From the IMG/VR virus record IMGVR_UViG_3300031718_000177: DNA of 64,000 bases; one strand, given 5' to 3'. The stretch's first letter is position 1. Every line of letters begins with the position of its first letter. Under the pieces are notes generated by a model. That model saw only the letters and a program-made list of their open reading frames with translations. It was not told where the DNA came from and did not search any database. A program made the translations under genes and the position numbers. Shown here one piece after another: positions 14,227 to 63,480 of the stretch. The DNA comes from a virus (Duplodnaviria; Heunggongvirae; Uroviricota; Caudoviricetes).

Positions 14227-14514
14227 CTAGTAACCCCTTCCTGAAGTGTCTTGGTTGACGAAATTGTCAGGAACTTCGTCTTTCTTCAGTTTCTTGAACA
14301 GCAATTTTTTATATCCTTGTAATGCTGCAATCTCCTTGCGTGCTTCAGCAAGGTCTTTCACAAGTTTTGTATTTTCTTCTTGCTTCCTTTTTAATCTACT
14401 CTGGGCAAGTACAACTTTACCTTCGGTAAGCCGCAACTTTGCCTGTAGAGATTCCGTATCCAATAGTTCATCTATTGAAATACCGGCATCTGAGAGAGCA
14501 CGAATTACTTTCAT
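14227..14514 (-). CDS. coiled-coil protein
   Basis: 95 aa, heptad-like charged repeats. Confidence 0.45.
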   Translation of the reverse strand: MKVIRALSDAGISIDELLDTESLQAKLRLTEGKVVLAQSRLKRKQEENTKLVKDLAEARKEIAALQGYKKLLFKKLKKDEVPDNFVNQDTSGRGY

Positions 14515-16103
14515 TATACATGTTTACTAACTAGTGCAACATCCCTTAGAGGAAGACGGTGGTAAGCCGGAGCACCTGTTCTAGCGTAATAAATGCCGGG
14601 CTCGACTTCATCGATTCTCGAAACTACTACTGTATCGCCCTTGGATAAAAGAGTAGAGTTTTCTGGTTTCCAAGCACCCACAGTATTCTTCAACACCTTA
14701 ACTGTATCGCCGGGCTCAATGACTGGTTTCTTAGCACCTTTACTAACAAGTTCAACGTCGGTTAGAGGAAGCCAATTTTTACCAGTAGAAATATCGTACC
14801 AAATAGCATCTCTACTGCCCCAACCTGATTTGCCAAGACTTTTGACTACTACCGTAGGCCGCGAGCAGTTCTGCGCAGTCGCGCAGTGAAGCTCACGCGG
14901 CGAATTGCTTTCCAGTAACCTGGCGGCTAGAAAGCCGATCAAAACAGCTAGAGCACCTGCGATAATGTATGCAGTATCACCAGGTTTAAGCCGTTGTCGA
15001 AACGATATCAAAGCGCCCACATCATTCTTCAACACCTTAACTGTATCACCGGGCTCAATAACTGGTTTAACAGCTTTGCTAACAAGTTCAACGTCTGTTA
15101 GTGGCAAATAACATTCTGGGAGACCCGGATGAAGCGAATCGTACCATATACAATTTGGACCTGATTTCGTATAATACGCTTGACCGTCCGTTCTTTTAAC
15201 TATCACGGTGTCTCCGGGTTTAAGATGTTGATTTGTATCGTTTCGCCAAGCACTTACGTTATTTCTCAACACTCTAACGGTATCGCCGGGTTCAATGACT
15301 GGTTTTTCTGATTGCTTAACGGCTTTGCTAACAAGTTCAACGTCTGTTAGTGGAATGTATTGTTCGACATCAGCAGGAATCCTATTGCTATCATAGTGGA
15401 TTCTATCACCCGAAACTCTCTTGACCAGAATAGTATCGCCAGGAACACAGTTGCGACCATTTGGACTATTTGCGTCTTCCCAAGTATCTTTACATGTCCA
15501 AGCACTTACAATATTCCTCAGCACCCTAACGGTATCGCCAACTTCAATGACTGGTTTGACACCTTTGCTAACTAATTCAACGTCCTTTAAGAGAATGTAT
15601 TGTTCGACACCAGCAGGACTCCTATTGCTAGCGTAATAGATTTTATCAACCGAAACTCTCTTGACTAGAATAGTATCGTCAGGAACACAGTTGCGACCAT
15701 TTGGACTATTTGCGTCTTTCCAAGTATCTTTACATGTCCAAGCATTTACAGTATTTCTAAGTACTTTAACAGTATCACCGGGTTCGATGATTGGTTTATC
15801 TAGTTGTTTAGCGGCTAATTTCTGTAATCGCTCAACCTCAGTGTTAAGACGCTTAATCTCTCCATCTCTCTGTTGCACGACCGTTTTAAGTTCTTCATAA
15901 CGCTTTTTATCTATTTCAGCGTTATACTTCATATCTTGAACAAGTTGTGTAAGTTGCACTTTTTCTCGATAAACTTCTAAGTAAAGATTTGGGTCTATGG
16001 GCGGTTGTAGTGCGGCTAGACCCTCGGTAATATCTCGGTCAACTGACCTATCAATGATGGAAATAGGCAGTCCAATAATCGCTCTACCTAATTGCTTGAA
16101 CAT
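14514..16103 (-). CDS. leader-bearing repeat protein (6 tandem ~45-aa PGDTV(K/R)VL barrel-like repeats, one TM helix)
   Basis: N-terminus MFKQLGRAIIGLPI (leader family); coiled coil; repeats of ...IEPGDTVKVLRN...LTDVELVSK; hydrophobic segment TAYIIAGALAVLIGFLAARLL. Confidence 0.65.
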   Translation of the reverse strand: MFKQLGRAIIGLPISIIDRSVDRDITEGLAALQPPIDPNLYLEVYREKVQLTQLVQDMKYNAEIDKKRYEELKTVVQQRDGEIKRLNTEVERLQKLAAKQLDKPIIEPGDTVKVLRNTVNAWTCKDTWKDANSPNGRNCVPDDTILVKRVSVDKIYYASNRSPAGVEQYILLKDVELVSKGVKPVIEVGDTVRVLRNIVSAWTCKDTWEDANSPNGRNCVPGDTILVKRVSGDRIHYDSNRIPADVEQYIPLTDVELVSKAVKQSEKPVIEPGDTVRVLRNNVSAWRNDTNQHLKPGDTVIVKRTDGQAYYTKSGPNCIWYDSLHPGLPECYLPLTDVELVSKAVKPVIEPGDTVKVLKNDVGALISFRQRLKPGDTAYIIAGALAVLIGFLAARLLESNSPRELHCATAQNCSRPTVVVKSLGKSGWGSRDAIWYDISTGKNWLPLTDVELVSKGAKKPVIEPGDTVKVLKNTVGAWKPENSTLLSKGDTVVVSRIDEVEPGIYYARTGAPAYHRLPLRDVALVSKHV

Positions 16104-16504: not shown

Positions 16505-16622
16505 TGAAACACCTTTCTTTGAGAAAAAACTGACTGCCTATTATATAGGCATCTCCTTTAATAATTGCCCGCTTCCGAGTTGAACGGAAATCGCGAGGGT
16601 CAGAACCTCGTGTGTTAGCCAA

Positions 16623-16946
16623 TTACACCAACGGGCCACCATCATCCTCAAACCGCATAAGTTCGAGATTTTCCATATACCAATCAATCTTACTTTGTAT
16701 ATTAAAATAACAACTTAATAGATTATGTACACCTTTCCACGACTTTTGTTCTCTAATAGCAAATACCAACATATGGCTCGCGTCAATACCTATGATGTGC
16801 ATATGAAAAAACTTACCTATCTTCAGGTTCCGTTCTATGTAAATCTCAGCATCTTCTATTTCCTTGACGCGATATAACTTCCAAGATACATTCTTGTGAT
16901 AAACTCCCTTGTCATATTCGATTAAGGTAAGGCTAGATGCCGCCAT
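16623..16946 (-). CDS. hypothetical protein
   Basis: 107-aa ORF. Confidence 0.45.
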   Translation of the reverse strand: MAASSLTLIEYDKGVYHKNVSWKLYRVKEIEDAEIYIERNLKIGKFFHMHIIGIDASHMLVFAIREQKSWKGVHNLLSCYFNIQSKIDWYMENLELMRFEDDGGPLV

Positions 16947-51748: not shown

Positions 51749-52108
51749 TCATTTTGATTCTCCACAAGCTGGACAAGTCTTACCGTCTTCTGATTCCCAT
51801 TCGTGTTTGCAGGCGGTACAACGCCAAAGTCCTATTTGTTTGCCCTGTGTAATATCGTAAACATTTGCATCCGTTTTACATAAAGGACAGGAACAATCGG
51901 CATATACCGGAGGGTCAATCTCGGGGTTGTCCTTGACTCTCCATTCCAAGCCACACCGAACACACTTTAGATCATGCTCGTGTGAACAGAATTGCCCGAT
52001 ATGCTCATGTCCAAACCAAAACAAACGGGGAATAGCTGTCTCTGGCAGTTGTCCGCTTTCAACTAGCGTTGCCATCTTGCTTAATTCGTCAGCGAACTCT
52101 TGCCGCAT
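51749..52108 (-). CDS. zinc-ribbon protein
   Basis: 119 aa; CVRCG…CSCPLC…CTAC…CPAC. Confidence 0.45.
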   Translation of the reverse strand: MRQEFADELSKMATLVESGQLPETAIPRLFWFGHEHIGQFCSHEHDLKCVRCGLEWRVKDNPEIDPPVYADCSCPLCKTDANVYDITQGKQIGLWRCTACKHEWESEDGKTCPACGESK

Positions 52109-52114
52109 TATTTG

Positions 52115-53014
52115 CTACCCCGCCTCTCTCTCGATATTCATATTGTGATAAGCTCTCTGTATCTTTTCGTGTATTCGTACCATTATATCGTGTGCAGTTT
52201 GAGAAGTTACGGGCTTACCTGTTTTGGGGTTCATTATATCACGAGCGATTCTGGATTTCAAGCCCCAATCATTACCGAAACTTGAAGTCATAACCGCTTC
52301 TAAAACTTGTTTTTCTACCGGGCTAAGGTCTGCGCTATCAACTGCCTTTTGCCAATCCGGATTAAACTTATGATTATCCTCGTATACGCCCTCATTGATG
52401 TCGTCATCATCACGACTTAACTGTGAACGCGAGATAACCTTACACCTTGCCCGCGTTAATTTACGATAATCATTTTGAGTTACATTATGACGAACACAAG
52501 CTTCATCAAAGGTAATGGGCTCAGGAAGACCAGAACGATAATCCTCTAAGGTTTGCAGCAATTCTTGGATACGACGGGAAGCAATATTTTGGTGAGCACG
52601 CTGACAATCGATAATATGATTTTTAATAGAACAACTCACGAAGGTACTGCATTTACTCTTAGTCGGGTCTGTATATCCATAGATACCTTTAAGCAAGCCG
52701 TTGATGGCTTCTTCTTGTACATCAAATAGACAATTCAGATAGCGGTATCTACGAGCAAACCTCTTAGCTAAACGGCAGTAATGTGCCATAAGCTGAGGCA
52801 CAACTTCGGATAGCATAATATTTACCAAAGATTGTTCATTGGTAGTTAAAGTAATGTTTAATTCGCCAGAAAAGAACTTAACTCTAAACGTATTATACTC
52901 TAAGTTAAGTCCTTCGGCTTTTGTTCGGAGCATTTTATTACAAGAAATAGCAACTTTTAAGAGTCTTTTACGAATAGATTGATTTAATGTGATGGGAGAG
53001 ATTCCACAAATCAA
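52115..53014 (-). CDS. sigma-70 family sigma factor
   Basis: Region 2 match (LFDVQEEAINGLLKGIYGYTDP…KCSTFVSCSIKNHI versus DLIQEGNIGLMKAVEKFDP…KFSTYATWWIR); region 4-like LSPVEKQVLEAV…VTSQTAHDIMVRIHEKI. Confidence 0.55.
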   Translation of the reverse strand: MICGISPITLNQSIRKRLLKVAISCNKMLRTKAEGLNLEYNTFRVKFFSGELNITLTTNEQSLVNIMLSEVVPQLMAHYCRLAKRFARRYRYLNCLFDVQEEAINGLLKGIYGYTDPTKSKCSTFVSCSIKNHIIDCQRAHQNIASRRIQELLQTLEDYRSGLPEPITFDEACVRHNVTQNDYRKLTRARCKVISRSQLSRDDDDINEGVYEDNHKFNPDWQKAVDSADLSPVEKQVLEAVMTSSFGNDWGLKSRIARDIMNPKTGKPVTSQTAHDIMVRIHEKIQRAYHNMNIEREAG

Positions 53015-53091
53015 GGGTCTAACTCCATTTACGAGATTTGGGCGACTGAAACAGTACAGAGACAGATGGAGGTGAACGGGGGTATAGGTCG

Positions 53092-53487
53092 TTAATGTCT
53101 GCGATAATAGCCGTTCGCTAAGAACAATTTTTGGCTAACGTGAAGTATATCAGATTGCGTTAGATTTTCAACCAGAGCATCGGGGAAAAACTTATTCTCG
53201 GTAACTCCGCACCTCCCGACATCTCTATTTATCCGAAAACGGTCTCCTTCTTGAGCCATTATTCCGATTTCAGGATGAAAAGAAAGAATAATCTTAAATG
53301 ATGGACTCGGATAACCCCCGAAAAACCCCGACCAAATCCGCACAATAGGATAAAGTACAAAATCGTTATCGTTATTTAACTCGTCAGGTAGTGGTTCGCC
53401 AATCGCATTATAGTGCTGCCGCAAAATACTTAACTGTGCGAAAGAGAACATGAGTGATATAGTACAGGAAGAAGAGAGGAGGGGCAA
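53092..53487 (-). CDS. hypothetical protein
   Basis: 131 aa. Confidence 0.45.
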   Translation of the reverse strand: MPLLSSSCTISLMFSFAQLSILRQHYNAIGEPLPDELNNDNDFVLYPIVRIWSGFFGGYPSPSFKIILSFHPEIGIMAQEGDRFRINRDVGRCGVTENKFFPDALVENLTQSDILHVSQKLFLANGYYRRH

Positions 53488-53499
53488 GGGATTTTAATA

Positions 53500-53910
53500 C
53501 TAACCGGATAAACTCTGAACCATCTGGAGCGACATGCGGAGCGAATCATTTAGCTGCAAGACAATTAACTGAACTTGATTGTAAAGATCACTTATGGAAT
53601 AATTGTCTCTTCCAAAGAATTGCTGCAAACCATTCCTATCCACTTCTAAAGTATAGGTTGACATTATGCCGGTTCCTAGCGGAGTGTTCTTAATTACGTA
53701 CTTCCAAGTAACAGGTGAACCGGTAATTGGTTGCGAAATATTACCAGGAGTTCCTGGCGTTGTACCTACTGCTTGTGTTGCTGTTGCCGTAAAAGTAATA
53801 CCATCACCTAATGATGTCCAGTTAAGTTTACCAGATGTAGTGGCTTGAATTAACTCTCCCACAAGGTTTGTTGCATACGAATTTTGGAGATCCAAAAGGG
53901 TTGTGGACAT
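53500..53910 (-). CDS. hypothetical protein (Thr/Gly-rich)
   Basis: 136 aa; first gene of the long minus-strand block. Confidence 0.45.
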   Translation of the reverse strand: MSTTLLDLQNSYATNLVGELIQATTSGKLNWTSLGDGITFTATATQAVGTTPGTPGNISQPITGSPVTWKYVIKNTPLGTGIMSTYTLEVDRNGLQQFFGRDNYSISDLYNQVQLIVLQLNDSLRMSLQMVQSLSG

Positions 53911-54127
53911 GTAAGTATATATCTATACTAACTTTAATTTTCTTCTCGGCTTAGGAACAAAATTACCCTAATCACAATCAGGAAAGTTTAAGTAACACCC
54001 TTGTCCTCCTGTAAATCCCGCACTATCAGTTCCCTTATTTTCTCGCTAACCGTCTTGTATTCCTTTTTACACTTTTTTTCCAATTTCTCAAAAAGAGAGG
54101 GTTGTATCACAACCGAAATTAACCGTG

Positions 54128-54156
54128 TTGTCAGTTCTTTCTTCATATACTATAAT
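54128..54156 (+). promoter_or_regulatory. sigma70-like promoter TTGTCA-17-TATAAT for the plus-strand module
   Basis: ttgtcagttctttcttcatatacTATAAT in the divergent intergenic region. Confidence 0.5.
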
Positions 54157-54190
54157 ATAGTATCTCAAAACGAAAATTAAGAAAAAATTA

Positions 54191-54427
54191 TTGAAAATCT
54201 TCCTCCTCTTGCCATTTTCCCTGGCGTGTGGTAGAGTGAGAGGTACGAATATGAAGGGAAAATCGTCTGCGAATTACGTTTGCTCCAAATGCAATAAACC
54301 ATTCACTTATGACGGACAGACCGATAATTTTATCATTTATGATGCAAAAGATGATAAAGTCCTAATCCTATGCAGGAGTTGTAGTAAAGTAGCACGATCA
54401 CGATTGAAAATAAGGAAAATAAAATGA
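54191..54427 (+). CDS. small zinc-ribbon protein (likely starts at the internal MKGKSS)
   Basis: CSKCN…CRSC. Confidence 0.4.
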   Translation: MKIFLLLPFSLACGRVRGTNMKGKSSANYVCSKCNKPFTYDGQTDNFIIYDAKDDKVLILCRSCSKVARSRLKIRKIK

Positions 54428-54642
54428 AAACCCCTAAGGAAAAGTTTGATGGAGTAATTATATTTAACATATGCGTAGGGAATGCCTCACTAGATGCCGC
54501 TATGGAATATATTGAAAAAAGGAAAAAAGCAAACGATTTCAATAGGTGGCCAGATAATTATGACCGTTTGTGGCTACCCACATGGAACGATAATAAGGAC
54601 AGCATACAGTTAATGCCCTTTAATCAATTAGGAAACAAATAA
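54424..54642 (+). CDS. hypothetical protein
   Basis: 72 aa; ATGA coupling. Confidence 0.4.
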   Translation: MKTPKEKFDGVIIFNICVGNASLDAAMEYIEKRKKANDFNRWPDNYDRLWLPTWNDNKDSIQLMPFNQLGNK

Positions 54643-55352
54643 TGTCGCAACGAGTAGCTACCAGAAATGGTAATAAAAACCTGTTATTAGTATGTCCACA
54701 TGGGTTTGATGATACCAATACGGATATCATAACCGAAGAGTTAGCATCTTCGCTTGATTGCTTCTCTCTCATCAATTACGGATGGGAAAGGACGCGAAAG
54801 CCGGATGATGTTAAAGGGTGGGCCGATTGTAATAACAGCAAACACGTTATGGATAAAAATTCGGTTGTGTTCGCCGAATTCGGCAAACCGTTCATACAAA
54901 TGCGGGCAAAGATATACAAGTTTAACAAGTCATTTTACACTCTTTATATTCACGGTTGTGGCAGCCGTGTTAGAAAAGTCACTAAAGACCCCGATTTGGG
55001 TATGATTATCGGTTTCGGACAAGGTACTACTCCGTCACTAACTTGTGAAAAATGGATGGCCGAGGTATTAGCAATTCATGCTACTGCGAACAATATCAAA
55101 ACATACTTGGGCAAAGCCGATGGCGATTATGCAGCATGGCTACAAAACAATATGTGCCAATATTATCGCAAGAAACGACCTGAACCGCTTATTCACAGTA
55201 TGCAGTTAGAAATCGTGAGTGCTTTGCGTAAAGACAGTAATTGTAAAGCGACAGCTACGCTGCTAGCTAAAGCCATTGACGAATTACTTAAATTAGATAT
55301 CAAAGGTGGAGACCCGAATGCAGGGAAGCAGTTGAATATACCGGAGTGTTAG
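54642..55352 (+). CDS. putative amidohydrolase (N-formylglutamate amidohydrolase-like)
   Basis: N-terminal LLLVCPHGFDD resembles the FGase-family HxG motif; family assignment is weak. Confidence 0.4.
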   Translation: MSQRVATRNGNKNLLLVCPHGFDDTNTDIITEELASSLDCFSLINYGWERTRKPDDVKGWADCNNSKHVMDKNSVVFAEFGKPFIQMRAKIYKFNKSFYTLYIHGCGSRVRKVTKDPDLGMIIGFGQGTTPSLTCEKWMAEVLAIHATANNIKTYLGKADGDYAAWLQNNMCQYYRKKRPEPLIHSMQLEIVSALRKDSNCKATATLLAKAIDELLKLDIKGGDPNAGKQLNIPEC

Positions 55353-55649
55353 ATGTGTCAAAACGGTAAGTGCGATTATCCCGCTCAATTTCACATAACT
55401 TCTGATAGTCCTTACATCTGGGTTGAAAAAGATTTAAGGGGCACAAACACATCTCTCAAGAAGTTGCTTGCTGATATGTCTGACGAACAAAGAAAGGCCA
55501 TTTCACATCAATTTCATAAGCAAAGAGGAGGGACAGTAAAGATAAGTGATGTTACTGAATTATATGTATGTCCAGAAAGTTTCCAGAAAGTTGTAAAGAT
55601 AAATGGCCTTAAGTTATATGTGCAAGCAGAAAGCTTCCAACAATGCTAG
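55353..55649 (+). CDS. hypothetical protein
   Basis: 98 aa. Confidence 0.4.
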   Translation: MCQNGKCDYPAQFHITSDSPYIWVEKDLRGTNTSLKKLLADMSDEQRKAISHQFHKQRGGTVKISDVTELYVCPESFQKVVKINGLKLYVQAESFQQC

Positions 55650-56287
55650 TCATTATATTCGGTCGTCCAGGTGCCGGCAAAGGTACTCACGGAAAAACCT
55701 TAGCCAAAGCTTTTGGCATACCATATATTGGAACTGGCGATATTCTAAGACAAAGAGCAGCATGCGACCTTAAAATTGGCAACTTAATGGAAGAATATGC
55801 GGCCAAAGGCCACTTATTGCCCGATGAAATCCTGAATCCAATTGTATTAGATTGTTTATCAAAACATAAGGATAAAGGGGCTATCATCGATGGCTACCCA
55901 CGCAACGAGACACAAGCCCGTTTCTTATTAGGATATCATACAAGTAATGAAATAAGAATCGATTGGATATTGAACTTTGTTGTATCCGAACTAGTAGCCA
56001 TTAAACGTCTTATGAAGCGAGGCAGAAGTGATGATTCTGATATTTCCGTTATCCGAGATAGAATGGAAGTTTATGAAAAGGAAACCTTGCCTGCTCTGTG
56101 CTTACTAGAACAACATTTACTAGTTAGTACGGTAGACGGCGAAGGAAGTATTGAAGAAGTGAAAGAAAAAATCATCTTGGCTTGGGAGGACTACTCGCGG
56201 AAGGTCTTACGAGCATATTACGACAAATTTATCGATCAAGAATTAAGAAGTAAAAAATACATCTTGCAACGTAATATGGAAACATAA
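55643..56287 (+). CDS. adk: adenylate kinase
   Basis: P-loop IIFGRPGAGKGT, NMP-binding region, IIDGYPRNETQA, LID-like RGRSDDS…RDRMEVY. Confidence 0.8.
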   Translation: MLVIIFGRPGAGKGTHGKTLAKAFGIPYIGTGDILRQRAACDLKIGNLMEEYAAKGHLLPDEILNPIVLDCLSKHKDKGAIIDGYPRNETQARFLLGYHTSNEIRIDWILNFVVSELVAIKRLMKRGRSDDSDISVIRDRMEVYEKETLPALCLLEQHLLVSTVDGEGSIEEVKEKIILAWEDYSRKVLRAYYDKFIDQELRSKKYILQRNMET

Positions 56288-56560
56288 ATGAACCAATGGG
56301 AAGAGTTGAAGCGTATTAAGAGCAAGGTAGGGATTTTATTCATCACGGAGGATTTCGGTCGGACAAACTATTGGCTTATAGAGAGTATTCAATTCAGGGA
56401 GAATTGGGGCGGGGGCTTCGCGGTTAAACTGGATAGTATTACAAATCCAGTCTTCGATAAGGGAGAAGTAGCAATAACTTATTTTAACAAATACTACAAA
56501 GAAGTTCCGAAGAATGAAGTGCCAAAAGAGTTGCAACAATATGATAGGAGATTCCAATGA
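56288..56560 (+). CDS. hypothetical protein
   Basis: 90 aa. Confidence 0.4.
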   Translation: MNQWEELKRIKSKVGILFITEDFGRTNYWLIESIQFRENWGGGFAVKLDSITNPVFDKGEVAITYFNKYYKEVPKNEVPKELQQYDRRFQ

Positions 56561-56775
56561 ATGTCTGGCAAATTCAAGGGCAAATACGTGCAGTTAAAAA
56601 AGAAGCATTAAAGAAATATAAGGGGAAGAAATTAGACGAAAAAGCATGCAAGAAATTGGTTAAGGATATTATTGAAGCAGTAAATCAAATCTGTCGCGTA
56701 GATATAATAGTTTCCAAAGAATGGATCGTTGAAGATATTATCATAGACACAGGGATGGGGATGATGCCGGTGTGA
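56557..56775 (+). CDS. hypothetical protein
   Basis: 72 aa. Confidence 0.4.
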   Translation: MNVWQIQGQIRAVKKEALKKYKGKKLDEKACKKLVKDIIEAVNQICRVDIIVSKEWIVEDIIIDTGMGMMPV

Positions 56776-57179
56776 TTTCCATAGCTAACCGAATTATACC
56801 AACGATAAATCTTAAAGAAGAAGATAGTGCCTATAAGATCATATATGCTATCATTCCCTGGCCTGATAAAAGTATAACCTATTATTTAAGTTATGGAGAT
56901 TGGCCGTTACTACGAAACACTGGCGGCGGGATCTGTCATAGCGAGATACTCCGAAAGTACGATAAGACTAGCTATTTTACTAATGTAGTCAATAGCGAAA
57001 AAGATTCTGCCGGAATATGTATAGGTGCTCTCGTTAAGCTTGTATTGATTAAGAACCCCCAAAATATACCGATGGTACTGGCTTTTCTAACACAAGTCCC
57101 ATATGATAGCAGTAAGTTTTTAATCAATACATTTACGAATAAACCAAGTATTCTTTATCCACCATCGAACGGACGGTAA
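56772..57179 (+). CDS. hypothetical protein
   Basis: 135 aa. Confidence 0.45.
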   Translation: MISIANRIIPTINLKEEDSAYKIIYAIIPWPDKSITYYLSYGDWPLLRNTGGGICHSEILRKYDKTSYFTNVVNSEKDSAGICIGALVKLVLIKNPQNIPMVLAFLTQVPYDSSKFLINTFTNKPSILYPPSNGR

Positions 57180-57249
57180 CTTGAGGTGAGCACCCCAATC
57201 GTATGCTGAAAATGACGAAAACCGACGAATTGCGGTTATGATTGGGGAA

Positions 57250-57891
57250 TCATCTAATCAATTTATCCAATGCTTTACTGGCTCTGTCGCCATATGTAAT
57301 ATTCGTAGGTTTTCTATTGATTTTCCAATCGTCGCCGATAGAAATGTATTCATTATTGTTTGTAGTTTTCCGAGCGACGGCGGCGTTCTCATCATTAGCT
57401 ATCGCTAACAACCAAACCTTCTTCTGAACTTCTAATAAATCGTGGTGACTTTGCTCGGACAATCTATCTACTGCCGCTTTCAAGTTATTATATGCCCTTT
57501 CAGAGTCAAACTTCTCTGATTTGTTATTATCTACTTCTCTGCTGGCGACTGGATTAGTTTGGTCACTTGTACTGCCGTGAATCAAACTACCAAATTTGTC
57601 GGGAAACATCCACGCAAAAATACATATTAAAATTAGAATTAGCACTACAATTCCAAGACCAACCGTTAATAAATTGGATTTATGTGACGGTCCATTTGGT
57701 TCACCTACATCTTCTCGCAATTTATTTTCCCAATCATCAGTTGTTACTACGATTGGTTTGCTTACAGTTGGTTGACTTGCCACTTTAAGTTGCTCAAGTC
57801 GTTTACGAGCAACTGCTTTTTCTACTTCTAGACGTAATTGTTCTCGGTTCATACTATATCTATACCTTGTAGAGCGGTTTTCAACGACCAA
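57250..57891 (-). CDS. membrane-anchored protein
   Basis: 213 aa; TM near residue 80. Confidence 0.5.
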   Translation of the reverse strand: MVVENRSTRYRYSMNREQLRLEVEKAVARKRLEQLKVASQPTVSKPIVVTTDDWENKLREDVGEPNGPSHKSNLLTVGLGIVVLILILICIFAWMFPDKFGSLIHGSTSDQTNPVASREVDNNKSEKFDSERAYNNLKAAVDRLSEQSHHDLLEVQKKVWLLAIANDENAAVARKTTNNNEYISIGDDWKINRKPTNITYGDRASKALDKLIR

Positions 57892-59380
57892 GTTTACTCT
57901 GGAGGAAATTGGTGAACTTCAATAGTTCTTTGCCAACCGAGGCTAATTTCCACGCTCGGTAATTATCCTTATCATATTGATTATGTTTTTCTTCGTCTGG
58001 GTTGTAATGTTGCTCTACCGCTTGACGCCAAACTTGAAGATTTTGTTGTATGAGTTTCATCGCTGCTTGTGGTAAGTTGGCCATCACCTCCTTTTCGGAT
58101 ATCTCGCCTTTGCCGTATAAGCCAAAGAAATTACCCATATAGTTTGCAGCCGATGTTGATGTGTTTCTAGGTTCTTTCAGTATAAAATTACACCAAAATG
58201 CGGCATCTTCCCGATATCTCGATGCGGCGTGATAACCTAAGTTAATCATAAACGTGCCTTGTGGATAAACTTTTACGTAGTCGGCAGTTTCGCCTTGAAC
58301 CTTGGGGGCTTTACCGAAACCCAATAATGTACAAATCTGCTGAATAAGCATCTGTGTATATCGGCCTCTATCTTGTCTAAAATTGTTCGGGTTAGCAAGA
58401 TAAGTGTGAATATTTGATATCATCCTTTCTAAATTGCTATCTAGAGTTTCTTCATCATCGAGTGGAATTTCAAAGTTTTCAGTATGGTAATCATGCCCGT
58501 GTTGCAGTGAGAGAAAGATTTGACCTCTTAAAGAGTGTCTTAATATATTTTTCTCGTGCGGCTCGGATGGTTCTTCGTAATTCAACGACAAAGTTCCGGA
58601 CATTCCATTTATTTCACCTCTTGCGGTCATACGAACTCTGTTTCTGTAGGAACTATCCCTTGCCATACTAGTACGATGGTCTTGAAAGATAGCTTCGCCT
58701 AATTTGTTCAGCATTCGTGTTGCTAGATTTTTATAGATATTTACCGGACTAACTTGGAACTTTTCAAGCTGCGTAAATGCCATTGGATTTAATATAACCA
58801 CCTGGGATGGTTCGTTGCTGTGGATTATAGAATCTCCGTCATCGATAAGAGCATCAAAGCCACCTGCCTTCTTAAAGAGTTTGTTCCAAGTTATGTTTTT
58901 TTGCCAATTATGATAACGACCACTGGGGGCATATTTTTCATATTGGGCATTTACGGCTTTATCCATAGTTTGCCAGAGGAAATGACCTGCTTTTGCAACT
59001 ATACCAGGGCGCTGGTGGGTAGCATGTTGACGATATTCACCAATTCCCATCTTATCAATTAAGTTATCGGCCTCTGTGTGGGTCAATTTGGATAGGTTTA
59101 GAACTTTGGCATTGTCTTTAAGTTTCAGGATGAATGTATAGGGCATCCCGAAGAAATGACTATTTCTATTAAATGTCTTATTCAGCACATAGGATTTTGG
59201 AAATGTAAAGATACCTACTGGGTCCGTATGAGTAGGATTAGGGTTGATGCCTACCTTATCGACATTACTAAAATGCACCAATACATCATCAGGTTGGTTC
59301 CGTAAATAGTCGAATAGTTTAGGTAAATAGTCAGATACAGCCTCCAAAATATTCTGTTCTAGCCAATTCTTAAATTGCAT
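57881..59380 (-). CDS. hypothetical protein
   Basis: 499-aa ORF, no recognised motifs. Confidence 0.55.
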   Translation of the reverse strand: MQFKNWLEQNILEAVSDYLPKLFDYLRNQPDDVLVHFSNVDKVGINPNPTHTDPVGIFTFPKSYVLNKTFNRNSHFFGMPYTFILKLKDNAKVLNLSKLTHTEADNLIDKMGIGEYRQHATHQRPGIVAKAGHFLWQTMDKAVNAQYEKYAPSGRYHNWQKNITWNKLFKKAGGFDALIDDGDSIIHSNEPSQVVILNPMAFTQLEKFQVSPVNIYKNLATRMLNKLGEAIFQDHRTSMARDSSYRNRVRMTARGEINGMSGTLSLNYEEPSEPHEKNILRHSLRGQIFLSLQHGHDYHTENFEIPLDDEETLDSNLERMISNIHTYLANPNNFRQDRGRYTQMLIQQICTLLGFGKAPKVQGETADYVKVYPQGTFMINLGYHAASRYREDAAFWCNFILKEPRNTSTSAANYMGNFFGLYGKGEISEKEVMANLPQAAMKLIQQNLQVWRQAVEQHYNPDEEKHNQYDKDNYRAWKLASVGKELLKFTNFLQSKLGR

Positions 59381-60277
59381 AAATATATATATAGTATGAA
59401 AATTATTATCGCTCTTATGCTTCTATTCTGTGCTTCTACTGCCCTGGCTCAGGATATAAAGCTTGAAGGAAAAGGGTCCGTTGGACATATCTCAGGATAT
59501 GCAGGGGCATCAAAATGGAATATTAGAATGCTTGTACTACGGCACTGCCCAGATGAGAACGGTGTTAGTGATGCCGCATTAGCGATGCAAGCCGCTAATT
59601 TAGGAGCCTCCAAGGGATTACACATTAAAGACCTTGGCGATTTTCGCGTGAATAGCGAGGGACTAACGGGTACCGAAGCCAAATTCGCATGGAACGAGCA
59701 AAAATATACTGGGGAAAGCCTCAAAGAGTTTATTGGTCGAGAGATGAAAGTTGATGCTAGGCCGGGCGATACATTTATTGTATATACCATCGGACATGGC
59801 GGAGAAGATGGCGGTATGGCAACATTAGGACAAAGAAGCGACTTTATGAATATTGTTGCTTCATTAAGCGAAGAGCAAAAACAGAGAACATTATGGTGGC
59901 AAATGAGTTGTCATGCGGCTGCATGTCTGCCGCCTATTTCGTCGCTGCCTGAAAAAGGACAAAAGTTATTCACCATGATTGCTAGTTCTACTGCCGAAAA
60001 TCTCAGTTATTTCGGCGTTGAGGGCGAAATCCTACAACAATTATTTGTTGCCTTAGCAGAAAATAGTCCATCTATAAATCCAAATAGAGGCAATACTATC
60101 ACTGCCGATGATTTGCGTGGGTTTCTTCTTTCAATAAATAGCGGAATAGATAAACTAGTTTTCGCCAGAAGTGGCGATACGGTAATATTTGGCGTTGGCG
60201 GATTCCCTCATGTACCTATTGTAGACGAGAATAATCCTCAAGGCACTTATCCTGATGACTACGTAACAGTGCCGTGA
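59375..60277 (+). CDS. secreted caspase-like (clan CD) cysteine peptidase (likely start at 59396, MKIIIALMLL…)
   Basis: Signal peptide MKIIIALMLLFCASTALA; His in TFIVYTIGHGG and Cys in TLWWQMSCHAAA, spaced as in clan CD peptidases. Confidence 0.55.
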   Translation: MHKYIYSMKIIIALMLLFCASTALAQDIKLEGKGSVGHISGYAGASKWNIRMLVLRHCPDENGVSDAALAMQAANLGASKGLHIKDLGDFRVNSEGLTGTEAKFAWNEQKYTGESLKEFIGREMKVDARPGDTFIVYTIGHGGEDGGMATLGQRSDFMNIVASLSEEQKQRTLWWQMSCHAAACLPPISSLPEKGQKLFTMIASSTAENLSYFGVEGEILQQLFVALAENSPSINPNRGNTITADDLRGFLLSINSGIDKLVFARSGDTVIFGVGGFPHVPIVDENNPQGTYPDDYVTVP

Positions 60278-60290
60278 CTTACTAATATTT

Positions 60291-60602
60291 CTATTGTAGA
60301 AAATCGTCTTTACCGTGATATTCTGGTTCGGGATGACGAGGTACGAAGTGGGTTTCCCACCACGGTCTATTATCCTCTTTAACTGGTGGTTGAGTTACAT
60401 GAGGATTACTTGCTTGAACCAGAGATTCAATTCTTCGTAGTAAAGTCAAGATTTCGCTACTAGATGAATCTAGTTTCTGTTCTAGCTGTACGATTCTTGC
60501 TTCAAGTTTTACAACTGGATTTGGACGATAGCCCGTTGGTTCAGGAGTAATCTTCTCTCCTACACTCAACCATAAAATCGCTTTTGTGATATTCCGTAGC
60601 AT
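60291..60602 (-). CDS. short leader-bearing protein
   Basis: N-terminus MLRNITKAILWLSVGEKITPEP (leader family); 103 aa. Confidence 0.5.
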   Translation of the reverse strand: MLRNITKAILWLSVGEKITPEPTGYRPNPVVKLEARIVQLEQKLDSSSSEILTLLRRIESLVQASNPHVTQPPVKEDNRPWWETHFVPRHPEPEYHGKDDFLQ

Positions 60603-62259: not shown

Positions 62260-63480
62260 CTAAAATGATGGTGACAATAATTTCTCAGTTCTACGACGAC
62301 CACTGCCACAAACGGCTGTAACCTTATCGTCTCCATGAGCGTTAATTCGGACGTGTCCCGTCCTATTTTTCCCTAAGTTTTCAATTAAACTTTGGCGATT
62401 AAAAGCAAAATCTTTAATGTTATTTGCGGCTAATACATCCCTATCATGTGTCCTACCGCATTCGCATGTCCATTCTCTTTCGTTAAGTTTAAGGTTACTG
62501 TTGATTTTGCCACAACTACACATTTTACTGCTCGGCTCAAATCTACCAATTTGTAAAATATTGCTTCCATACCACTCACCCTTGTATTGAAGCATCCTTA
62601 CGAAATTGCTCCAACCAGCCGAGGATATTGAATATGCTAAATTGTGATTCTGCAACATTTCCTTTACACTTAAATCTTCAAGACAAATAGATTGGTTCTC
62701 TCGTATTAGTCTTGTTGATAACTTTTGTAAGAAGTCATTTCTTTGATTTGCTACTTTTTCGTGAAGTAAAGCTAACTTCAATCTTGCTTTCTCTCTGCGA
62801 TTGCTGCCTTTTACTTTTCTATCTTTCCATCGTGAAAATAGTTTCAATTTATCTGCGGATTTCTCTAAGTATTTAGGATTTTCTACTCTCTCGCCAGTGG
62901 ACAGAGTAATAAAATGTCTCAGTCCCAAGTCAATTCCGATTGCTTTCTTTCTATCCGGTTTCCTTTTCTTTTTTGGTTGTTCAGTTGTTTCAACCACTAC
63001 CGAAGCAAAATATTTATTTGTCGGCGTCTTACTTATAGTAACTGTTTTAATCGTCCCGTTAAACTTGCGATGCAATGTTGCTTTAATATTTTTGATTTTT
63101 GGTACAGTAATTGTTTCCTTATCAAAATCTACTTTGTTACTTTGCGGACACTGGAACGACTGGTAACTTGATTTCTTCTTAAACTTTGGGAAACCATTCT
63201 TCTCTCGGAAGAAACGAGTATAAGCGTTGTCCAAGTTTCTTAATGCCATTTGTAGCGACTGGGCATTAACTTCGGTAAGCCATTCTATTTTTTGTTTCAA
63301 TTTAGTTAATTCGCCGTTCAGGTCTATACAAGATAGACCTTTCTTTGTTTCTTTATATGTTTGTATTTTAGTTTCTAGCCCCCAATTGTAAACAAATCTT
63401 GAACAACCAAAATGTTTGCTGAAAAGTGCCTTCTGTTCTTCTGTGGGATAAATCCTATATTTGTACGCTTTCAATATCAT
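62260..63480 (-). CDS. tnpB: IS200/IS605-family TnpB (OrfB), intact
   Basis: RuvC-I IGIDLG, RuvC-II ICLEDLSVKEM, zinc finger CSCGK…CECG, RuvC-III RDVLAANNI; 406 aa. Confidence 0.85.
   Translation of the reverse strand: MILKAYKYRIYPTEEQKALFSKHFGCSRFVYNWGLETKIQTYKETKKGLSCIDLNGELTKLKQKIEWLTEVNAQSLQMALRNLDNAYTRFFREKNGFPKFKKKSSYQSFQCPQSNKVDFDKETITVPKIKNIKATLHRKFNGTIKTVTISKTPTNKYFASVVVETTEQPKKKRKPDRKKAIGIDLGLRHFITLSTGERVENPKYLEKSADKLKLFSRWKDRKVKGSNRREKARLKLALLHEKVANQRNDFLQKLSTRLIRENQSICLEDLSVKEMLQNHNLAYSISSAGWSNFVRMLQYKGEWYGSNILQIGRFEPSSKMCSCGKINSNLKLNEREWTCECGRTHDRDVLAANNIKDFAFNRQSLIENLGKNRTGHVRINAHGDDKVTAVCGSGRRRTEKLLSPSF

Follow-up and report, generated by a model that had tools for sequence, protein, structure and literature searches.

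The gene at positions 14514 to 16103 on the minus strand of a 64,000-nucleotide (nt) stretch of tailed-phage DNA (Caudoviricetes; IMG/VR record IMGVR_UViG_3300031718_000177), hereafter the window, codes for a modular, non-enzymatic protein from a genome of the huge-phage-like type. Three parts make it up: a unique N-terminus of 45 residues, a roughly 55-residue helical stalk and five barrels. The open reading frame (ORF), which an earlier note on this DNA had delimited correctly, starts with ATG and comprises 529 amino acids (aa) in the ORF list. An identical protein is on record on a metagenome contig of 292,671 bp (ENA ERZ27256860). The anatomy of this repeat protein is secure: five barrels follow a stalk, and a helix of membrane grade lies in a loop insertion. 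As to its role, we tentatively favor, at somewhat less than an even chance, a multivalent binding scaffold on the cytoplasmic side that is held at the membrane by the grafted helix. In this view, a partner that is repeated or polymeric would be bound through the variable loops of several similar barrels. The protein would sit on the cytoplasmic side, with the grafted hydrophobic helix as its tether to the inner membrane, in place of the N-terminal or inter-domain membrane helices that serve about ten homologues.

The earlier note had assigned the gene a membrane-inserting or envelope-spanning role in the virion, in injection or in lysis. Scans with Pfam, PHROGs, NCBIfam and PADLOC gave this assignment no footing: neither the gene nor its neighbors matched a structural, tail, endolysin or spanin family. 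We regard the 529-aa protein as a curiosity and not as a recognizable virion, injection or lysis protein. The combination of a stalk, five barrels and a membrane-grade helix within one barrel was not found in the homologues or in the literature searched; what is known is the fold, and what is not catalogued in Pfam is the sequence family.

Five repeat units kept by protein-level selection

The motifs that mark the beginning and end of each repeat are present as described before. Each of the five units opens with KP(V/I)IE(P/V)GDTV(K/R)VL(R/K)N and closes with (L/P)L(T/K/R)DV(E/A)LVSK. Their number and size had been misjudged: the six repeats of about 45 aa proposed from the letters resolve into five units, which are 71-80 aa long except for the fourth, of 112 aa. 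The miscount probably arose from the two PGDT(V/I)xV half-motifs found within each unit. An insert reading NAWTCKDTW had likewise been ascribed to three repeats; the corresponding loop, AWTCKDTW(K/E)DANSPNGRNCVP (AWTCKDTW...NCVP), is confined to units 1 and 2.

The repeats exceed chance by a wide margin. Tandem Repeats Finder gives a score of 778 for a 240-nt period, the units share 46-80% pairwise identity, and repeats 1 and 2 are 85% identical in DNA and 80% in protein, with a ratio of nonsynonymous to synonymous substitution rates (dN/dS) of 0.25. A profile made from the repeats scores the five domains at 89-119 bits, a circular result in that these domains built the profile; across all six-frame ORFs of the window, its match is limited to the repeat gene. 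Between units, dN/dS ranges from 0.07 to 0.35, with dS often near 1 and with both ends of repeat 4 included, so the units are maintained by selection at the protein level and are not explained by recent duplication alone.

No homologue of aa 1-102 was found in a word-indexed search of 5.8 billion proteins, in which the whole-protein query returned only itself and P0002, a two-barrel homologue described below. The N-terminus had been called a leader. It offers Sec-type features in the form of an n-region with K3 and R7 and a 10-residue h-region, and a small-x-small site was not seen on reading the sequence; a signal peptide is at best doubtful. The highest 19-residue hydropathy within the first 48 residues is only 0.71, and aa 1-45 are therefore not a membrane helix or anchor. 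A helical or coiled-coil stalk at aa 46-102 is plausible from the heptad pattern, in which a single register (register 1) extends over about aa 41-105 with 12 of the 19 a/d positions hydrophobic, despite an RDG break. This stalk probably serves oligomerization.

The whole protein has eight cysteines, which amount to one pair in each of repeats 1-4 (124/139, 204/219, 318/331 and 407/413). These pairs occupy three different structural positions, and the pairing suggests disulfides or metal sites.

The barrel fold and its relatives

To model a single unit, unit 3 was submitted to AlphaFold with an alignment of the five units and two units of P0002. The result is a five-stranded barrel, with a predicted local distance difference test score (pLDDT) of 88.3 and a predicted template-modelling score of 0.78. 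Modelling thereby shows each barrel as a predicted SH3-like fold of KOW-type topology. The earlier expectation of an SH3-like or KOW-like barrel for one unit was right for the fold only. The best matches in fold comparison were the KOW domain of Spt5, OapB and L24. The likeness to KOW domains (NusG/Spt5, L24, OapB) is thus one of fold, whereas a link at the sequence level was absent from both the Pfam and the hhalign tests. The Pfam KOW family (PF00467) missed its threshold of 22.3 bits, scoring 11.3 bits at E 0.33, and hhalign gave a probability of 10.8% (13 columns) against the E. coli NusG KOW domain and 0.3% against L24, with reference sequences entered by hand. The repeat profile had no match below E 1 among PDB sequences, and a BFVD fold search matched only unnamed small phage proteins and, weakly, DUF4314.

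Other SH3-like barrels differ in further respects. For the SH3b cell-wall-binding domains of lysostaphin and phage endolysins, no SH3b Pfam family was returned for the repeat protein up to E 10. SH3b systems have a peptidoglycan hydrolase, whereas no hydrolase domain was found in the repeat gene and its 10 neighbors, and the homologues of the barrel family look cytoplasmic. PsaE, NdhS and PetP, small peripheral SH3-like subunits of membrane complexes, resemble the barrels in fold alone, with 15-23% identity, and there is no photosynthetic context here. Among phage accessory proteins that bind macromolecules of the host, a KOW-like barrel has a precedent in T4 MotB, a non-essential early protein with a predicted KOW-like N-terminal domain (PMC7827196). 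MotB differs in having one barrel and an OB fold without repeats or a membrane element, and the comparison is one of predicted fold.

An uncatalogued barrel family in metagenomes

When 1.84 billion representative proteins were searched with the repeat profile, 64 proteins were found at E<=1e-3, 17 of them at E<=1e-10. At least two of the 64 (P0024 and P0035, with PKD-type repeats) are false matches; the independent family members P0003-P0023 have E values from 7.5e-28 to 9.8e-9. The barrel domain is carried by about 60 metagenomic clusters, several of which lie on huge-phage-like contigs. None of the 35 members examined matched a Pfam family at its cut-off. The barrels form a sequence family that is uncatalogued in Pfam and seen only in metagenomic proteins, with the consensus PGDxVRVLRN...A...LxPGDxIxV...Y...NxIPxxDVELV.

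For the 529-aa protein itself, scans of Pfam, PHROGs, NCBIfam and PADLOC gave only sub-threshold matches or PHROGs of unknown function, some of which match it weakly. Neither megablast nor tblastn matched the region, the protein, one repeat or the homologue P0048 to any of 50,697 GenBank phage records, and an IMG/VR scan with the repeat alignment yielded no confirmed locus.

Family members range from single barrels of 75-140 aa to proteins with 2-4 tandem barrels. About 17 of the single-barrel members (P0012, P0018, P0020, P0021, P0028, P0036, P0043, P0046-48, P0053, P0056-58 and P0061-63) end in a conserved CxC-x(6-9)-GCxCG(A/V)FQRE tail, presumably metal-binding, that matched no known family. 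A subfamily (P0006, P0009, P0016, P0022, P0029 and P0031) shares a helical C-terminal region after the barrels, exemplified by MNANREKLIDTLKDLL...ETVEMTQAEYEAYF and likewise assigned to no family.

Membrane-grade segments occur in about 10 family proteins. In P0002-P0005 an N-terminal anchor precedes a CxxC...CxxC zinc ribbon, after which come a charged coil and two barrels; N-terminal hydrophobic anchors are also present in P0008, P0010, P0014 and P0017, and P0023 and P0064 have hydrophobic segments between barrels. The anchors of P0002, P0010, P0014 and P0017 are preceded by acidic and followed by basic residues, and zinc-type motifs adjoin the barrels in P0002-P0005 and P0008. Because of these anchor-flanking charges and adjoining zinc-type motifs, the family barrels are likely to be cytoplasmic and often tethered to the inner membrane.

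A membrane-grade helix inside the fourth barrel

The hydrophobic helix that the earlier note had seen as interrupting the repeat array is of transmembrane grade, as was claimed, and its position has to be revised: it lies not between repeats but inside an insertion in unit 4. The segment YIIAGALAVLIGFLAARLL (aa 379-397) has a Kyte-Doolittle (KD) mean of 2.21, an Eisenberg <H> of 0.71 and a hydrophobic moment (muH) of 0.11, values by which it is predicted to be of the transmembrane type and not amphipathic. Segments of similar hydrophobic grade are found in five other long ORFs of the window, one of which encodes an SPFH protein. The helix makes up the first half of a 40-aa insertion. In unit 4 the inserted residues directly follow the second PGDT, where the long loop that leads to strand beta2 ends. 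This insertion is absent from the other four units and from 12 homologous domain pairs.

Its DNA stands out from that of the gene, with a GC content of 57% versus 43%, and its 3' part holds a 44-nt palindrome with a folding energy of -25.2 kcal/mol (z -3.47; none of 200 shuffles folds as well). No other copies were found in the window by blastn, by blastp against all window ORFs or by a scan for similar hairpins. Exact-pattern scans of viral, metagenome and genome collections and a peptide-based scan of genomes gave no match, nor did blastp of the insertion peptide against family members or a search of Rfam. Terminal inverted repeats or a target duplication are not visible at the junctions, and the multiple copies, terminal repeats and target duplication that characterize MITEs (miniature inverted-repeat transposable elements) or Rickettsia palindromic elements (RPEs) were thus not found for the 120-nt insertion. 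An origin of the hydrophobic stretch by double frameshift was considered and rejected; the other two frames over aa 365-430 are stop-filled and contain no repeat-like sequence.

Repeats 4 and 5 were modelled together (AlphaFold, 13 aligned domain pairs). Both barrels close in the model, with block-mean pLDDT values of 87-94 for the barrel parts of repeat 4 and 86-98 for repeat 5, and the insertion loops out at a pLDDT of 44-54 with a predicted helix at aa 385-397. Since the homologues in the alignment lack the insertion, the model shows compatibility and not proof. The purifying selection on both ends of unit 4 is support independent of the model.

Scaffold, spanning protein or accidental insertion

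Several observations weigh against a membrane-held cytoplasmic scaffold. The closure of barrel 4 in the model is not an independent test, as it is driven by an alignment of insertion-free homologues. A uniformly hydrophobic helix of 19-21 residues with a muH of 0.11 looks membrane-spanning and not like a surface anchor, and if it did span the bilayer, the polar 19-residue return linker could not come back and barrel 4 could not form. The paired cysteines would suit disulfides and hence an extracytoplasmic or virion location, which is the best argument for an oxidizing environment. The family barrels have a median pI of 6.3, i.e. they are not basic, and lend no support to nucleic-acid binding. 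Finally, the two genes immediately upstream appear to encode membrane or secreted peptides, the sole point in favor of an envelope link.

An alternative is a true single-pass protein, whose N-terminus would be inside and whose residues 378-398 would cross the inner membrane. This would put the stalk and barrels 1-3 in the cytoplasm and the second half of repeat 4 and barrel 5 in the periplasm, and the protein would work with the 71-aa and 59-aa products of the upstream genes as an envelope-spanning device of the lysis, exclusion or injection type. The hydropathy and hydrophobic moment are typical of a spanning helix, its N-terminal flank is more positively charged than its C-terminal one, Cys407 and Cys413 lie just past it where a periplasmic disulfide is possible, and both upstream genes are tightly packed against the repeat gene. 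Such a pass would, however, cut barrel 4 in two, yet both halves keep their conserved blocks, are under purifying selection and form one closed barrel in the model. The barrels of anchored homologues appear cytoplasmic, no endolysin, holin, spanin or tail families were found nearby, and the N-terminal membrane helix of i-spanins is absent. We consider this arrangement unlikely.

Equally unlikely, in our estimate, is that a piece of neutral or selfish DNA entered a tolerant surface loop without breaking the reading frame, leaving an accidental helix in a soluble protein. It would account for the absence of the insertion from the other four repeats and from all homologues, for its divergent GC content and its hairpin, and for its position at a loop-strand junction where the barrel is still predicted to fold. 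Rickettsia carries in-frame palindromic insertions of such size, reportedly described by Ogata and co-workers in 2000. The likeness to Rickettsia palindromic or MITE-like elements extends to a length of about 100-150 nt, the palindrome, the reading frame and tolerance in a surface loop. Those elements, however, are defined by many copies per genome, whereas here there is one known copy, with ends that are not recognizable: searches of the window and of the viral, metagenome and genome collections turned up no further copy, and neither terminal inverted repeats nor a target duplication could be seen. Moreover, an exposed and uncharged hydrophobic stretch of 21 residues on a soluble protein would normally be selected against.

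A scaffold held at the membrane by the grafted helix is thus the reading that we retain. Taken further, it would describe an uncatalogued barrel family from metagenomes that is active on the cytoplasmic face of the host's membrane, perhaps tethering nucleic acid, ribosomes or a partner ATPase, with an anchor gained in the present protein by the insertion of 120 hairpin-bearing nt into the loop of an intact barrel. This wider proposal is a long shot, somewhat less probable than either of the two alternatives above. If true, a new membrane anchor made by insertion within a folded domain would have been caught in the act. In any case, the repeat 4 insertion is a natural experiment on whether a folded beta-barrel tolerates or uses a loop-grafted hydrophobic helix.

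Genomic contexts of homologues and possible ligands

The neighborhoods of the homologues and of the repeat gene are, as judged from their gene content, non-structural, a further point against a role in the virion, in injection or in lysis. Throughout the P0002/P0003 subfamily, the gene for an ABC/SMC-like ATPase of about 295 aa comes right before that of the anchored two-barrel protein, about 20 nt away, and an HU-like gene lies a few genes upstream (L002 7097-9119; L009 4090-6653). This conserved pairing may name a partner. P0006 is flanked by genes for an NAD-dependent DNA ligase and a topoisomerase. P0048, on a 585-kb contig, has an RF-1-domain gene directly downstream, P0008 lies near a class II aminoacyl-tRNA synthetase domain, and P0041 is fused to a GatB/YqeY domain. 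These are weak clues that the ligand could be nucleic acid or the translation apparatus rather than the cell wall. As huge phages carry many genes of this kind, the translation flavor of the contexts is a lead only.

Another reading takes the barrels as analogues of KOW in function, with RNA, the ribosome or RNA polymerase as their target, which would make the protein a factor associated with translation or transcription in a huge phage; it is a proposal about the ligand and overlaps in part with the scaffold model. The top fold matches (Spt5 KOW, OapB and L24) agree with it, Spt5 itself has 5-7 tandem KOW domains, and the neighbors of the repeat gene include tRNA-Gln and a TilS domain, beside the GatB/YqeY fusion and the RF-1-domain and aminoacyl-tRNA synthetase neighbors of homologues. 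It is nevertheless very unlikely as it stands: the sequence link to KOW domains is missing in both Pfam and hhalign, the barrels are not basic, translation-related neighbors are expected by chance in huge phages, and other homologues lie among DNA-metabolism genes. Just as improbable is a fiber, whisker or decoration protein of the virion, the virion role put forward in the earlier note, with a trimerizing coiled coil, bead-like barrels and cysteines disulfide-bonded outside the cell, since, although a coiled-coil stalk with tandem small beta-domains is a common design of phage fibers and decoration proteins and the cysteines are strictly paired within repeats, no structural or packaging gene was recognized among the scanned ORFs of the window, homologues are located among replication, translation and ATPase genes, many of them are single barrels of 75-140 aa with zinc-type tails or are N-terminally anchored, and the BFVD fold search led only to unnamed small phage proteins.

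For a specialist, a repeat ORFan in a huge phage will come as little surprise, and the current view of phage biology is unchanged unless a ligand is found. What is worth keeping is the definition of the family and the loop-grafted helix. Most huge-phage genes are without assigned function, and the repeat gene provides a handle on a recurrent KOW/SH3-like building block, whose members often have membrane anchors or zinc-type tails and, in one subfamily, a conserved partner ATPase. The family definition would allow the annotation of many hypothetical proteins and points to a membrane-proximal activity during infection.

Gene neighborhood in the window

The repeat gene is part of a tight, co-directional string preceded by a hairpin and composed of the 59-aa gene, the 71-aa gene, the repeat gene, the 95-aa gene, two ORFans and a TilS-like gene (Table 1). 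The 71-aa gene possibly belongs to the same unit as the repeat gene. Its product has a charged C-terminus and resembles class II holins or pinholins in size and shape; no endolysin was found nearby. The tail of the 59-aa product is metallothionein-like, as its roughly 30 residues (CHCAEGKGCTCKDHNCHCPNCKCKHCPGK) include 9 Cys and 4 His. Neither ORF matched a family in the Pfam, PHROGs, NCBIfam and PADLOC scans, and for the 95-aa downstream protein Pfam gave only a sub-threshold PUMA_CC. As in spanin/holin cassettes, a lipoprotein-like peptide of small size, a membrane protein with two helices and a protein with a putative coiled coil are neighbors here. The i-spanin, however, has an N-terminal membrane helix, which the 529-aa protein is without, and neither an endolysin nor a lysis PHROG or Pfam family was found in the neighbors, as would be expected of a lysis cassette. 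The TilS-like gene, four genes downstream of the repeat gene, places a tRNA-modifying enzyme near a phage tRNA.

Table 1 Features of the repeat gene and of its surroundings, in positions of the 64,000-nt window.
Feature	Position	Strand	Remarks
Whole repeat gene	14514..16103	-	529 codons and stop codon (14514-16); ORF list
N-terminal region, aa 1-45	15969..16103	-	Acidic, pI 4.5; 10-residue hydrophobic core AIIGLPISII; hydropathy
Charged helical stalk, aa 46-102, putative coiled coil	15798..15968	-	Heptad pattern; RDG break at aa 79-81
Barrel repeat 1, aa 103-182	15558..15797	-	Enlarged Cys124...Cys139 loop WTCKDTWKDANSPNGRNC; domain score 98 bits
Barrel repeat 2, aa 183-262	15318..15557	-	Enlarged loop as in repeat 1, Cys204...Cys219
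Barrel repeat 3, aa 267-345	15069..15305	-	Modelled unit; enlarged beta2-beta3 loop; Cys318/Cys331
Barrel repeat 4, aa 346-457	14733..15068	-	Split by insertion; alignments and model of repeats 4 and 5
Barrel repeat 5, aa 459-529	14517..14729	-	Shortest unit, without cysteine; C-terminal end of the protein
Insertion in repeat 4, 120 nt/40 aa, aa 378-417	14853..14972	-	Just before strand beta2; unique to the 529-aa protein
Hydrophobic helix AYIIAGALAVLIGFLAARLLE, aa 378-398	14910..14972	-	Predicted transmembrane grade; 19-residue KD 2.21
Imperfect GC-rich palindrome (hairpin), 44 nt	14858..14901	-	3' part of the insertion; codes for SPRELHCATAQNCSRP
Upstream neighbor, 71 aa, two hydrophobic helices	16107..16322	-	Stop 3 nt before the start of the repeat gene; ORF and sequence
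Second upstream neighbor, 59 aa	16325..16504	-	Signal or lipoprotein-like N-terminus MKSLIGLVCCALFVGFSCVGC; Cys/His-rich tail
Downstream neighbor, 95 aa, coiled-coil-like	14227..14514	-	Start codon overlaps the stop of the repeat gene; ORF list
tRNA-Gln, anticodon CTG	16564-16638	-	ARAGORN and Rfam; upstream of the 59-aa gene
Terminator-like hairpin and T run	16535-16551		Between tRNA-Gln and the 59-aa gene
TilS N-terminal domain protein, 346 aa	11720-12760	-	Lysidine synthetase, PP-loop; 198 bits against a cut-off of 93.6
TnpB (IS605 OrfB family), complete	62260-63480	-	HTH, OrfB and Cas12f-like TNB domains
ORFan, 1228 aa	23798-27484	-	Weak R67/DfrB dihydrofolate reductase match, aa ~954-1018, Pfam E 3e-5, just below cut-off

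The genes of the window are nearly all in one direction and most are without a family. None of the window ORFs scanned matched a capsid, tail, terminase, endolysin, holin or spanin family, and PADLOC detected nothing in the window. The other recognizable genes encode an RNA ligase, an MA-type peptidase, DnaJ-domain, SprT-like and SPFH proteins, an AAA+ clamp-loader-like protein and TnpB; the best phage match of the AAA+ protein is in the 595-kb uncultured phage LR756511.1. The 1228-aa ORFan was considered as a further copy of the barrel and rejected, as the repeat profile does not match it and its DfrB/R67 segment is a different SH3-like barrel. The GC skew flips sign at about 52000-60500, and plus-strand genes lie at 54642-56287 and 59375-60277 in the otherwise minus-strand window; a module boundary, an origin or a terminus may lie here.

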